A stretch of 64,000 bases of DNA, taken from the NCBI GenBank assembly GCA_013265495.1, contig MU057724.1, positions 372,001-436,000 on the forward strand. Direction: 5' to 3'. The position numbers were made by a program, and so were the translations under genes. Below are positions 769-59,420 of the stretch, in pieces. Under the pieces are notes generated by a model that worked only from the letters and a program-made list of their open reading frames with translations, was not told the DNA's origin and ran no database searches. Numbering within the stretch: position 1 is the stretch's first letter; each line of letters opens with the position of its first letter. This DNA is from Vicugna vicugna. Lineage: Eukaryota.

Positions 769-37479
<36,711 letters not shown>

Positions 37480-38377: not shown

Positions 38378-49125
<10,748 letters not shown>

Positions 49126-49561: not shown

Positions 49562-51870
49562 TGATAGAATAAGGAACACTTGATTATCTGGCATTATTTT
49601 TCATTAAGAGAAAAGCTTATATCGCTTTCATGAAAATTCTTGATAGTAAGTCCTTTACATAAGTCACAAAAGAAACTCACTAAAATGTAATTAATTTCAT
49701 TTTACTCAAAAATTATTTCAGTCCTAGCAGCCATTCTTGTAAAACCACCATTAAGTCCCATGTGGAAACACTGCTGTAGTAAGTAATCCCTGAGACGTGC
49801 AGGTCATTGTATGAGGTTGGCCTTTTTTTTGTAACTTAAGAGTCGACCTCTGCTGGTGAAGTGCCTGTGCAGTGACGGACTGAGTGCTTCAACAGCAGCG
49901 CAGTGTGAGGAGGTGGCCTTTAGAGGGCATCCCAGCAGGCGTGCCCCTTCGCTGCGTGGTCCTCGCTGCCCTGTATCTGATGGAGGTGGCAGTTAGTCTG
50001 GGTTTCACCAAGGGCTGCAGAGGAGGCTGAATGAAAACCCCTGAGTCTTCTGACCTCGGGAATCGCTCGGGCTTTAACTCTGCAGGGTGTGGATGCTGCT
50101 CACACTTCCAGAAACAGCGGAGGGAGGGCGGCGCCCCAGCCTGCTCCCTGGAGCAGAGGAGTCTGGGGAGCTGTGCTCCCAGCTCTAGTGACTGGAAATA
50201 ACTGGTCCTCAGGCCCCAGCCGAGCTGTGGGCAGCACACAGCCCTGTGTGCCAGGAGTTGTGAGGCCAGTTCCTGAGCCCAAGTGGAAGACAGACGTCCA
50301 GGGGACAAGCAAGAGCTGGCCTTCCTTTCCACTAAAGAGCACTCTGAACAGGGTCCCAGCTAGACGAGTGCTGCTGCCAGCTCTGTAATGGCAGATGACG
50401 CAGGAAACAGGTGCTGTCACCAAATCAAGCCCTCAGCCAGCGCCAATGTCTAAACCTGGTGCTTCAGCACCAGTGTAGGAATTACGCAGCTGTAGATGAA
50501 GTCCAACCCCAAGGGAACCGGAGCTGAGTGAGTGAATCCGGGCTCCGTCCTGGTGGATCGGCCTTTCCTGACACAGCTGTAACTGCCCAGTGGTCTGGGA
50601 GTCTCCGAACGCAAGAGGGCCTTGTCCCCCAGGGCAGGGCCCAGCGGCAGAGCTTGCTGGAGGTCTCTAGAGGGAAGAGTCCCAGGAAGGGGGAGTGAGC
50701 CTGTAAAAATTCAGGACCCCGAGAACCCCAGAAAGCGGGGAGGAGGGGAGGGTGTGTTCACGCGAGAGCTCTGCCCACCCGCCCACCTGCCCCTGAATTC
50801 TGAGAGCTGCTCCCTCAGAGGTGCAGGTGCAGGTGTGGAGGGTGCACCTCGTGACTCTGAGAGGCGCCTCTCCCATCCTTACAAGGCGGCCTGTGAGCAC
50901 AGGTGGGGCTGTGCAGGCTGGGATCCTGGCTCCGCCAACCTTCAGTGCTCAGGACACAGCAAGCGCTCAGTGCCCAATACCGCTCCCGTGAGCCAAGTAA
51001 GGACACCAGGGTTTTCTTACTAGGACAATTCAGCTCAATTGCTACAAACGTGTCTTATAAATGCTACAACACAATGCAATTGCATTTGAACTTTTCCTTA
51101 TAATTTTGACCCTGAAAGATACCCAGACTGGCTGGATCGACCTTACTTGATTTGCACACACACACAACACACTGTCCATCCAGCATCCCCCACAAATACA
51201 ACCAACTCCACCCAAGGGCTCAACAATCAGCAAGAAGAACGAGGAACCCAGACACCATGACCCACTCCCAGCACGAGGTTAGCAGAAATCTGCCTCAAGG
51301 AAGTACTGCTACATATCAAATCTGGGGTGATTCCTTAAAATACCTCTGCAATTTAATTTTTTAAACTTTTTTGAAATAAGTTTCAGGCTTACCCAAAAGT
51401 TGTAAGGATAATACAATTCCCATTTACCTTGCACTCAAATTCCTTTAATGTTAACATTTTCTCAACTCAGCTTTTATCATTACCCATAAATGTGTTTTTA
51501 ACTGAGCCTGCATTCCAGTCAGGATTTCCCTTTGCCTCTAAGTACTTCCTAAAAACCACATGTATCCTCAAACAGCCAGCTTGCCTTACGTAACCACCAC
51601 AGGACAATTTCATAACAATCAAAAAAATCAGTATTTGCCCCCTCTACAGACAATTAAAATCTCATCAGTTGTCTCAACAATGGTTTTCACAGCAAAAATG
51701 AAAATAGCCTGTTTCTGCTTCAGGGTCACAAGCTGCGTTTAGTTTTCGGGCGTCTCCTCTTCAGCCTGGCACATGCCTCGGGATTTTATCTTTTCATGCC
51801 CTTGACATTTTTAAAGAATACAAACCAGTTTTTTTTTGTAAATGTCCTGAAGTTGGGTTTGTCTGAGGTC

Positions 51871-52540
51871 TTTTTTTCCCCCCACAGACCACATCTTTAT
51901 TCATTCACCAGTCGATGGGCACTTAAGCTGCTTCCAAGGGTTGGCTACTGCAAATAATGCTACTACGAACACTGGGGTGCATGTGTCCCTTCAAACCAGT
52001 GTCTCCATTTTCCTCAGGAAAATACCTAGATGGGGAACTGCTGGCCTGAATGGTAGTTCTATTTTTAATTTTTTCTAGGAACCTCCATACTGCTCTCCAC
52101 AGTGGCTGCACCAATCCACACTGCCCCCAACAGTGCACGAGGGCTGCCTGTCCTCCACACCCTCTCCAACACTCGTTGCTTGTCCCTTGGTAACAGCCAC
52201 TCGGACAGGTGGGAGGTGACAGCCCACTGTGGTCCTGAGCCGCACCCCCGCTGACGAGCAGTGCTGAGCATCCTTGTGTCCGCCTGTATCTGCACGGCCT
52301 CTTTGGAAAAACGTCTATTCAAGTCCTCTGCCCTCCTTTTAGTCAGGTGCTTTGTTTTTTGATGTTGAGTTGTTTGAGCTCTATTGTACATCTTGGATAT
52401 TAACTCCTTCTCAGATACACTGTTGATAAATACCTTCTTCCACTCAGTATGCAGTCTTTTTCTCTTGTCAATCCCCCTTCGCTGTGCAAAAGCTTTCTCG
52501 TTTGTAGTCCCATTTGTTGAGCTTTGCTTGTTTCCCTTGC
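51871..52540 (-). mobile_element. LINE-1 ORF2 3' segment fused to the PMS1 retrocopy
   Basis: L1-type text (CGLVQPLWRAVWRFL; aaagctcaacaaatgggactac) ending in an A7 tract. Confidence 0.85.
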
Positions 52541-53390
52541 CTTGTTATATATTAAAAACAACCCTTACATCAGCTTTAAGTAGACCACAGCATAGGAGAT
52601 CTTGGACCTTTTTCATTTCATATTTACGCTTTTTAGCAGTTAGTAAAATTGCTCTCTTACAGGTTGACCCATGAACAGTTACAGTTGTGCCCATCCCCAT
52701 GGATAAGATGGTTTTCTGCTGGCGTCTTCAATCCAATGTGTGGACGTGATGGTGGTCCTTTTGGACTTAACACAGCTTTTTTCACTTGTGGCCGTTTTCC
52801 CTTTACAGGTCTCAGAAAGCACTTGTTGCTTTGGAAGAAAATATGAAATTGTTGTTTATTCCTTCACCAAGATGTGAAGGTTTTTGAGAAATTATGTGGC
52901 CACTGCCATCCGGAACATACTGGGTGCTAAAATTATCAGCAGCTGTCCTGGTTATAATTAAAACCTCAGCTACACAACAAAAGGACCCCCAGGCTTCTCC
53001 ACACGAACCGTAAGTTGTCAGATCTTCAAGATTATCGTGGTGACTTACTTTTGAGGTGCAGCACTTCATGGCCATTACGGGTGCATCAGCACCACTGTCT
53101 CGCACCTCAGTTCTGTCAAATCCACAGTCCCCCAGCTTAACATCTGTGCTTGTAGCACTGGCATCCAGGGGGTTTTCAGTGAGTTCTTTTACAACACTGA
53201 CCACTGAGGTGATCATCTGAGAACCTGAAAGGAGGCAAACTGTTGCTGCAGGCAACTGTCTCATTCTAGCTGTCAGCAGAGTAGCTTCTTGCTTGCATGA
53301 GGTGGGCAATTACAATCCACTGGTGGGATGCTGCACTGGCCCGGGCTCGCCAATCCCCAATTCACCCCCAGCGTGCGCGGCGGGGCGGGC
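52538..53390 (-). pseudogene. PMS1: processed (intronless), 3'-truncated PMS1 retrocopy: 5'UTR plus N-terminal GHKL ATPase coding region
   Basis: ATG at 53264: [44 protein letters not shown]...QKPSHLGEG matches the PMS1 N-terminus without introns; degenerate ATPase motifs; frameshifted continuation at 52541-52690. Confidence 0.93.
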
Positions 53391-54089
53391 CTGAGGTTGG
53401 TTTCTGGGCACCACTTGGCAGGAGCACCGCGGCGGTGAGGCTGTGTGCTCAGCGCGTCACGTCAGGGGGTCAGTGAACCTGACCATTACAGGTGAGGCTG
53501 ACTCGATCACCTGAGTCTCTTCCTCGTAAATGACTATTTTTCTTCAAAATTATAAATACCTTGTGGGGAGAAAATCTGGGGCTGTGTAACTTATTTTTCG
53601 TCAGGCTTTGGGAGTAAGCTGCACATACGATCCCCTTTACCCTCGAACACTGGATCTGATCTTTAAAACAAATGAAATCACATTATTCCAACTTGGCAAT
53701 GCCTACAATTTGACATTACATCTCTCATTTCTTAAAACCTTTAAAGGTTGCCTAATCTAATTAGAATAAAATAGAAATGCCTTGTCATTCATAACCAGAA
53801 CACCATGGGATCTGACCCACCTGCTTCTGGGACCCCATGACTAATAAGAACCTTCCAGTCACCCTGGATTTCTTTCAGTGGCCAAACTGGCCCATCTTCA
53901 AGGCCCAGGACAGACACCACAACCTTCCTGCCCAGAGGCCCACTTCCGCCTGCCCCAGGCTCCTGCCCTTAGCTGCTGATGCTGTCCAGGCTCCCTCCAG
54001 GTTTCACACGTCTGCCCCATGATCTGAGCAGCAGTCCTCTCCCGAGATGGCCTGGTTCTAACTGCCAGCACTGAAGAACAGGGCGGCCA

Positions 54090-54245: not shown

Positions 54246-54289
54246 GCTACAAATTGTCCAGATAAAAAGCAACTTACAAAGCCTTGTGG

Positions 54290-54540
54290 GCCCCATGTTC
54301 ACTGCAGCACTGTTCACAACAGCCAAGACACGGGGACAGCCTGTACGCCCGTCGATGGGTGAGTGGACAAAGAAGCTGTGATGTATACACACAATGGAGT
54401 ATTAGTCATCCGTGAAAAAGAAGAAAACCCTGCCATTTGTGACAACATGGAAGGACCTAGAGGGTTTTGTGCTCAGTGAAGTAAGTCAGAGAGATACTGT
54501 TTGATCTCACTTGTATGTGGAATCTAAAAACAATTTAAAA
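54290..54540 (+). mobile_element. LINE-1 ORF2-end/3'UTR fragment
   Basis: ccccatgttcactgcagcactgttcacaacagccaagac...cttgtatgtggaatctaaaaa. Confidence 0.8.
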
Positions 54541-56118
54541 CCTCACAGGTGTTTGTCCTTCAGACTCTTTCGTCTCACTACTCCCTATCACAGCAAACGG
54601 AAAGTTACAAACTTTAAAATCTGCTTCCATTTCTTTCCAGCTTCATCAGCCTCTGGCAGAGACCGGGTGAGGGATCCCTGTTTTATGTGACACTTGCGTC
54701 GCCCAGACCAGGCACCACGCTCTCCCCGCAGCAGTGCTGTTCCCTTGTCACAGATGAGTCCCCAGTCCCCACACTGCTCCAGCTACCTCCCCACACACAC
54801 CCGTTGCAGGGGAGTCGCTGAGAACAGCCTCTTCTTTGCAGAGTCTCCTCGCACTGAGGACTGAAGTGAAGGGACGATTTCTAAAGAGGAGGTTGCCTGC
54901 AGGGAAGGCCCAGTCTTCCACAGGACCACCCGAGTGCAGTTACATAGGACGGGCCTGATTTGCCTCAAAAGAACAGCATCAGCCTTCCGACTCAAGGATC
55001 TGATTAAGTGAAACCTGCAGCTCATAAAACTCAAGTCTCCATTTCACCTTCTGCTGCTCAGATGCCCACAGCCTCTGGCACAGTCTCCCTGCTCTTCAAT
55101 GGGATTCCAAAGGCAAAGTGTGTGATCCGATGGCTTTTAGGACTGTGAAACCTAAATGCACAATCTCACAACAATGCAAAGTCTTTCCTTAGCTGGAAAA
55201 TTGTTAACAGTTGATAAAAAACGTCAGTCAATTTGAAAACTGCATGGAGCATCTGTAGTAGTTTCTGTAAGCTATCTGCTGGGATTATTTCAAACAGGTC
55301 TGCAGTACAAGGTCCCTGAGCACTGGGTCTGTTTCTACATTATCAGACCCATTAACACTCGAGTAACCAGAGGGCCAAACTCAAGCTCAGTGAAGTGTGT
55401 TTTAAGTGTATGAAACCTTTCCTCTGAGCCGCGGCGTTCTGGAGGAGGCTAGAGCACTAGAGAATCAATAATTAATTGGCAAAATGCTCCTCCTCCTCTT
55501 CAGGCATTATTACAGCAAAACAACACTAGACTCAAGAATAAAGTTTAATGACTGCTTCTTTCAAGACTCTTGCAAATTAAGAAAGGATACAGTAAATGCA
55601 GGCAAAGAAGTGAAATTACGGACAATCACAGAGGCTTCACAACCAGGTATAGCACATCCTTGGTCACGTACTCAGTAAATGTCTACAAACACAACAATGC
55701 ACCTTGTGCCCCAGTTGCCTCTACCATCCTGGAACCTGAACTTGCCGAATCATCCCTGCCTGCAGTTTAATACTGAAGTGTGCTGCAAAACGCACAATAG
55801 CTGGAAGGTCGTACACATCCAACCACTGTCACATGTGAAATTTTGCTCAGAATTAATATTTAAATGAGACGAGGCTTCAGAAGAAAAGATGCCAGCTTGG
55901 CAAACTTCCAGGCACGTGAAACTTTGCTCACTTATCCTCAATATCAGATTGCCAGACTATAGGTAAGCCTACATAAACTCTACTTCTCATGAAGAACAAC
56001 AGTTCCATGAAATAGGCTTTGAATGTGGAGTTCCAGGTGCTTTCCAAACTGTTGATTTTACATACTAATGATTCTAGAACAATGCTGATGTCATGTTAAG
56101 CTATTCTGTTACCTAACT

Positions 56119-58199: not shown

Positions 58200-59420
58200 G
58201 GTGCAGGGCGGAAAGAATGAAGGGTCTCCACCCAGCAGGAACTGCCCCTCGGTGTGCGTGACAAGGGCTCAGACCGTGAGAGCCGGGGGCGGCCGGACAG
58301 GGGGCGTAGGGGGCCGGGACGCGGCGGGCGGAGTTCGGTCAGCACCCACTCCGTCGGGACTGCGGGTCCCCGCGCCCCACCCCTGGGGCTGCAGTCCCGG
58401 GTGTCGCCCGGCTATCGGGGCGTCCCCGCCGGCAAGGCTACCCGCGCGGGGAGCTTCCCCCGGGGCGCAGAGATGCTCCCTCATTACTAGGAAATTCTTA
58501 CACTTTTTGAAAGAACTTTCTAGACTTAGACCGAGGTTCTAATCATGTTCCAATGTCACGCTGAAAAGAAAACACGCACTAGCTGGCGTAACCCTAGGGG
58601 CCCTTTACGCTTTCCGCGAACTCCTGGCTCCGATCCACACAGAGCGCGCCCCGCCCCGCCCCGCCCCCAGCTCCACACGCACGCGCGCCACCTCCGCGCC
58701 CGGGGAGGCCCGCGCGGCGTCCGCGCACCTGCCCGGACGCACGCCTATGACGTCACGCCGGCGCGGGCTCTCCCAGGCAGCTGCCCCTCACGCAGCGTTT
58801 CCGCCTCGCGCGTTAGCCCGCCGCTCCGGTGTGCGGCTCAAGTCAGCTTCCCCGAGCTCTTCCTTCAGCCTCTTACTCTGCATTAGCGGCTGCGTCTCGG
58901 GCAGCCGGAAGCCGCCGGGCGAGTCCGCGGCGACGCGCCGGAAGCCGCCGGCCGGAAGCTGCGGGGCGGGCGGTGGCGCTCCCGGAAGTGGCGCGAACGT
59001 CGCGTGCGTGCAGGCGGTGCGTCCGGCTGCAGGAGAAGATGGCCGTCTCCACAGGTCGGTTACCGGCCGGCCGCCTGCTTTCCCACCCCGACCCGCGCTG
59101 CGCCTCCGCCTGCCGCTGGCGGCCGGCCCGGCCGTGTGGGAGAAGCCAGAATCCTGCCTCTCCGCCGCCGGGCTCCCCGCGGAGCGCAGCGGGGAGCAGG
59201 GAGGATTCGCGTGGCCGTCGGGGCGGCGGTCGTGCCCGCCCGTCGGCCGCGCGCTCGGGGACCAGGCTGGGCCGGGGGCCGGCGGGCGGGGTCCCGCGGG
59301 CGGTGTGGGAGCGAGGAGAGGATCCCGGGCGGGCCGCGTCCACCTGGGTGCTGAAGGGCTCGCGTGGGGTCCTGAATGGAGCGGATCCCATCCCCCGACT
59401 CGCCTTGATGTGGACGGAGG
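58200..59420. promoter_or_regulatory. UBE2V2: UBE2V2 CpG-island promoter
   Basis: CpG-dense. CRE TGACGTCA 58748-58755, four CCGGAAG ETS sites (58905, 58938, 58952, 58982), GC boxes. Confidence 0.88.
59039..59054 (+). CDS. UBE2V2: Ubiquitin-conjugating enzyme E2 variant 2 (MMS2 homolog) exon 1 coding part, MAVST(G); remainder lies beyond the window
   Basis: ATG GCC GTC TCC ACA G|GTCGGT in a CpG island; MAVSTG start plus conserved synteny downstream of MCM4. Confidence 0.88.

Follow-up and report, generated by a model that had tools for sequence, protein, structure and literature searches.

Chimeric insertions that join a cellular RNA to L1 sequence have been described in several forms. In human, Law and Burns (bioRxiv 10.1101/2025.02.02.635956) list 17 chimeras of mRNA and L1, six of which end at splice donors, and two cis-spliced RAP1GDS1/L1PA2 insertions are found among the set. 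Processes by which such RNAs could arise are covered in three further articles, which describe splicing into retroelements together with premature polyadenylation that leads to 3′-truncated insertions (PMC4859970), exonisation and cryptic polyadenylation caused by an intronic L1 (PMC3192792), and L1 RNA that is itself spliced and prematurely polyadenylated (PMC2896524).

The window analysed here, a 64-kb stretch of Vicugna vicugna DNA, holds on its minus strand a PMS1/L1 insertion situated between MCM4 and UBE2V2. The coding exons of MCM4 extend from ~38800 to 49122 and UBE2V2 starts near 59000, so that the insertion is intergenic. We consider it very likely that the insert is a processed pseudogene of a PMS1 pre-mRNA which was joined by cis-splicing to an intronic L1 in sense orientation, received its poly(A) tail there and was retroposed once. 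Splicing and intronic polyadenylation most likely created the chimera as RNA, ahead of reverse transcription, and it most likely works like the cis-spliced mRNA/L1 class, a known kind of event. With the RAP1GDS1/L1PA2 insertions, as described by Law and Burns, it has in common the host 5′ exons in sense orientation to the L1, the junction at an exon end, the single TSD and the poly(A). It differs from them in its L1, which in RAP1GDS1/L1PA2 is nearly full-length and was proposed to be retrotransposition-competent, whereas here it is a 0.66-kb ORF2 fragment ended at an internal AATAAA. Since this L1 part is a non-autonomous ORF2 fragment, the PMS1/L1 RNA would have been a passenger mobilised in trans. 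The main text of Law and Burns mentions neither PMS1 nor camel, no description of a camel PMS1 retrocopy or of this locus was found in the literature, and the publications found on intronic polyadenylation are general and do not mention PMS1.

The insert is bounded by two copies of ACCTCAG, at 53391..53397 (minus strand) on its 5′ side and at 51863..51869 (minus strand) on its 3′ side, as the sequence-only reading had stated. That reading had also pointed to a GC-rich leader and an A7 tract, and both were found. The leader comprises the 126 nt before the ATG at 53264 (53265..53390, minus strand; 63% GC, 7 CpG) and is presumably PMS1 5′UTR, judging from the human mRNA, and the A7 tract (51871..51877, minus strand) is the remnant of a poly(A) tail. 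The flanks of the insertion, which the sequence-only reading took for consecutive halves of one older L1M element, may resemble an old L1MC/MD-type 3′UTR, and no colinear homologue of them was found in the 64-kb window. Outside the insertion, ~0.9 kb past the 5′ TSD copy, there is an oppositely oriented L1 ORF2 3′ fragment (54271-54547, minus strand). The ACCTCAG motif occurs ten times on the minus strand of the 64 kb, and the chance of finding one inside an 80-nt window is ~1.2%. The repeat comprises seven exact bases and can be extended into the A-tract with mismatches, 10 of 13 bases matching. We accept this 7-mer as an eroded TSD, and it is short: seven exact bp fall under the 8-20 bp range used by Law and Burns, which counts against the cis-splice reading, and compare with a median of 14-16 bp in recent canid retrocopies. 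The earlier proposal of one insertion, with PMS1 mRNA and L1 sequence inside one TSD, stands as the most likely account.

The 5′ part of the insert is homologous to PMS1 (tblastn E 2e-63, residues 1-190). Codons 1-139 and the first base of codon 140 occupy 52862..53264 (minus strand), with a five-codon deletion and 33 of 134 residues differing from camel PMS1. This part is free of introns across the boundaries 44/45 and 105/106 which, like the other PMS1 boundaries given here by codon position, are deduced from isoforms. It is followed by a cassette of 171 nt that is not PMS1 (52691..52861, minus strand), placed inside codon 140, at an exon boundary, and containing five stops in the PMS1 frame. 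The decayed codons 140-194 come next (52541..52690, minus strand; 150 nt vs 164 expected) and close with the exon end AAG. The intronless PMS1 coding sequence that had been proposed is therefore borne out in its homology and in its joined exons, but it is interrupted at codon 140 by the non-PMS1 cassette. The cassette is probably a cryptic exon from a PMS1 intron. A search for its source gave no match in 292 PMS1 proteins, no matches in Rfam, nothing significant in Pfam (best chance-level E 0.073) and no colinear match in the window. Among the 292 PMS1 proteins there was likewise no isoform that contains the cassette or that passes into L1 at the end of codon 194, a point against the cis-splice reading.

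The change from PMS1 to L1 is abrupt and has no poly(A) in between, as had been noted, and it falls at 52541/52540. This position is the end of the exon at codon 194, so that the PMS1 portion breaks off at a splice donor, as in cis-spliced chimeras. Among the best 120 of 353 PMS1 protein matches, 72 are without exactly residues 195-233. Short PMS1 isoforms diverge right after residue 194 in 27 of 99 cases, at 196-198 in nine and at 139-143 in 32, these counts not being independent because the isoforms are related, often orthologous gene models. The points of divergence indicate that foreign sequence meets PMS1 at an exon boundary in both places. In many mammals the annotation includes PMS1 isoforms that end after codon 140 or 194 and carry lineage-specific tails (one of them shared by several cetaceans), which suggests that both introns often give alternative last exons.

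The L1 piece (51878..52540, minus strand) is a sense, internal fragment of ORF2 that covers approximately residues 1001-1224 of 1275, on a residue scale obtained by aligning the window L1 copies at 28974-30203 to the solved ORF2p. The fragment stops ~50 codons short of the ORF2 stop and carries no 3′UTR, and it is not an L1 3′ end, contrary to the earlier description; other L1 copies in the window continue past that point through the end of ORF2. Inside ORF2, 18 nt before the A-tract and thus at canonical spacing, lies an AATAAA signal (51896..51901, minus strand), which the sequence-only reading had not mentioned. None of five other window L1 copies has AATAAA at this site, four reading GATAAA and one GATACA. 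A G>A change is needed to obtain the signal, against the decay bias of the insert (A>G 11 vs G>A 3), which weakly suggests that the signal was already present in the template before insertion. We infer that the piece is an L1-derived alternative last exon. At the point of L1 entry, the sequence upstream of the homologous position is 61% and 70% pyrimidine in two decayed window L1 copies; the AG expected directly before it is missing in both, which weighs against cis-splicing. Viral contigs (0 confirmed of 37 candidates) and metagenome contigs supplied no further mammalian L1 copies for the acceptor context. As a separate observation, the L1 ORF2 stretch at 28974-29489 (plus strand) is arranged in tandem, with one copy stopping near 29255 and a second restarting at an earlier ORF2 position, an arrangement suggesting that a younger L1 landed within or next to an older copy.

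The strongest evidence comes from a predicted gene model of Camelus bactrianus. PMS1 isoform X3 (XP_074220124.1, 167 aa) consists of intact PMS1 residues 1-140 followed by an L1-like tail, and its N-terminus comes from the parent gene and not from the insert, which is identical at 101 of 134 residues. The tail corresponds to the opening ~60 nt of the L1 piece of the insert (70% over 20 aa, E 2e-8) and gave the only match among 250, then 292 PMS1 proteins. It is in exact register from the first L1 base, with a codon-fit cost of 9 compared with a minimum of 22 and a median of 26 over 300 random stretches. Within the window it scores highest against the insert, at 40.9 bits, followed by another L1 at 31.6 bits, and by codon-fit cost the insert stands only weakly apart from another L1 copy (9 vs 11). 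The tail begins with GKR, and these three residues are also similar to read-through into the intron as seen in other mammals, and none of the best-scoring stretches of the top 150 representatives covers the tail as such. An Arg codon common to the tail and the insert was considered as a diagnostic character and rejected, as window copy L1b also has it.

As far as this predicted model goes, the annotation of camel PMS1 runs into L1 at the point where the insert does, and through the X3 tail the source L1 may be placed in an intron of the parent PMS1 gene. X3 passes into L1 at the codon-140 boundary and not at codon 194, so that, with an L1 located behind codon 194, it would have to leave out the exon in between. 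The same entry could place the L1 in the earlier intron, which is a point against the cis-splice reading, as a second copy or trans-splicing would then be needed.

Based on these features, we propose the following sequence of events. In an ancestor of camels, the PMS1 intron that follows the exon ending at codon 194 would have contained an L1 in sense orientation. The pre-mRNA would have taken up the 171-nt cryptic exon after the codon-140 boundary, where the cassette is seen to lie, and splicing would have joined the codon-194 donor to a cryptic acceptor in L1 ORF2 at the junction now visible in the insert. Cleavage and polyadenylation could then have taken place ~18 nt past the AATAAA that this L1 copy had gained, the signal itself being present at that site. 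L1 ORF2p acting in trans would have copied the resulting RNA of ~1.5 kb from its poly(A) almost up to its 5′ end, and this single TPRT event left one TSD. The copy has since decayed.

A rival route is trans-splicing, in which the PMS1 codon-194 donor would have been joined to an L1 RNA of independent origin that had been polyadenylated prematurely, with the same cryptic acceptor in use and the product then being retroposed. Such a route would account for the exon-exact junction, and it has human precedents, as 15 of the 17 chimera gene loci of Law and Burns are without an intronic L1; the entry of X3 solely from the codon-140 boundary is also in its favour. We nevertheless regard trans-splicing as highly unlikely, because X3 implies an L1 with the same entry point within the camel PMS1 locus itself, and because the trans-type chimeras reported there mostly have a near full-length L1, while the L1 part of the insert measures 0.66 kb and is truncated on either side.

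The sequence-only reading had instead attributed the chimera to a TPRT event in which reverse transcriptase started on L1 RNA and moved to PMS1 mRNA at a short microhomology. Template switching is a recognised route (Law and Burns), and it would produce the same orientation, the single TSD and a junction without poly(A). Canonical PMS1 moreover reads AAG-GCN at Ala195, a real short homology that gives an apparent AG-GC microhomology with the L1 and counts to that extent against cis-splicing. A switch of this kind would however have to fall exactly on an exon end, and the probability that a random switch lands on a coding exon junction is p ~0.004-0.03. It would also have to use the L1 base that is entered by a camel PMS1 isoform, an L1 RNA that ended within ORF2 behind a non-consensus AATAAA, and a PMS1 template that already held an aberrant exon. 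With the L1 3′ end missing, a derived AATAAA, a junction at an exon boundary, the X3 entry point and a second aberrant exon all opposed to it, this mechanism is not supported, and we regard it as highly unlikely.

The comparison with U6/L1 chimeras, which have been ascribed to RNA ligation or template switching (PMC4859970; Law and Burns), leads in the same direction. In these chimeras, cellular RNA at the 5′ side and L1 at the 3′ side lie in the same orientation within one TSD, as in the insert. Their L1 parts are 5′-truncated; the junction in the insert is an exon boundary. The same orientation and the single TSD are thus shared with U6/L1 template-switch products, and two other features of those products, an L1 3′ terminus with its 3′UTR and a junction unrelated to splice sites, are absent from the insert. 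U6/L1 chimeras keep the L1 3′ end, which the L1 part of the insert is without.

That two events were involved, with an L1 fragment and a more extended PMS1 retrocopy arriving independently or being brought together by a subsequent deletion, draws some credit from the exact TSD of just 7 bp with its ~1.2% chance occurrence, but is the most improbable account given the exon-exact junction and its match to the X3 entry point, the arrangement of AATAAA, A-tract and TSD at the 3′ end, and the finding of no separate repeat bracketing the L1 piece among the 20 largest repeat families listed.

The joined exons, the poly(A) remnant after AATAAA, the TSD and the disabled frame are the hallmarks of a processed pseudogene. 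L1-mediated processed pseudogenes of alternatively spliced or intronically polyadenylated mRNAs (PMC9435743, PMC3192792 and PMC4859970) have intron loss, a poly(A) remnant, a TSD and decay in common with the insert, and in that class exonisation and cryptic polyadenylation are tied to an intronic L1, as proposed here. The insert differs in that its template had two non-canonical exons. Its PMS1 frame contains six stops plus indels, and the retrocopy is dead and encodes no intact protein. No evidence of its expression or function was found. Within 52862-53264 (minus strand) the decay is GC-biased (AT>GC 19 vs GC>AT 6), in the manner that GC-biased gene conversion would produce.

Divergence from camel PMS1 is roughly estimated at ~0.11-0.13 substitutions per site. 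At positions 78, 86 and 128, where camel PMS1 has residues that set it apart from all 13 other mammals compared, the insert has none of the three camel-only residues, which indicates that it is old; the insertion probably dates to the camelid stem or earlier. The region 51300-53900 was represented by 0.91-0.98 of its words in 14 of 24 listed runs and, once four possible source runs were removed, ten rows from seven studies and three organism labels were still word-rich, so that the insertion is shared and not private. The RNA-type runs (six rows) contained 0.06-0.26 of the words of the region, which is not evidence of expression.

The sequence-only reading had also drawn attention to the placement of the insert within a DNA repair and replication gene cluster. 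No evidence was found for any significance of the PRKDC-MCM4-UBE2V2 landing site, and nothing indicates that the location means anything. Elsewhere in this neighbourhood, a 47-base N run was noted at 38694-38740, in the MCM4 5′ region, within the CpG island between PRKDC and MCM4. The MCM4 ATPase exon at 45258-45623 (plus strand) is 100% identical to that of Camelus ferus MCM4 and at most 93% identical to other listed mammals (91-93%), with amphibians at 92-93%, a pattern of identities that suggests accelerated change of this exon in camels.

As a single dead copy, the insert changes no mechanism. It does offer a caution, as an apparent template-switch mRNA/L1 chimera is here better read as a spliced, intronically polyadenylated transcript on the basis of its junction and its L1 3′ end. 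A further proposition, that the L1-derived exon is a long-maintained and selected intronic-polyadenylation switch which cuts PMS1 to an N-terminal ATPase fragment, appears to us unlikely; if true, it would be a camelid-specific attenuator of the output of a mismatch-repair gene, acting on the MutL homologue PMS1. More modestly, the insert may be regarded as a fossil which suggests that camelid PMS1 made use of one cryptic L1 acceptor long ago and, according to the annotation, still does so today.
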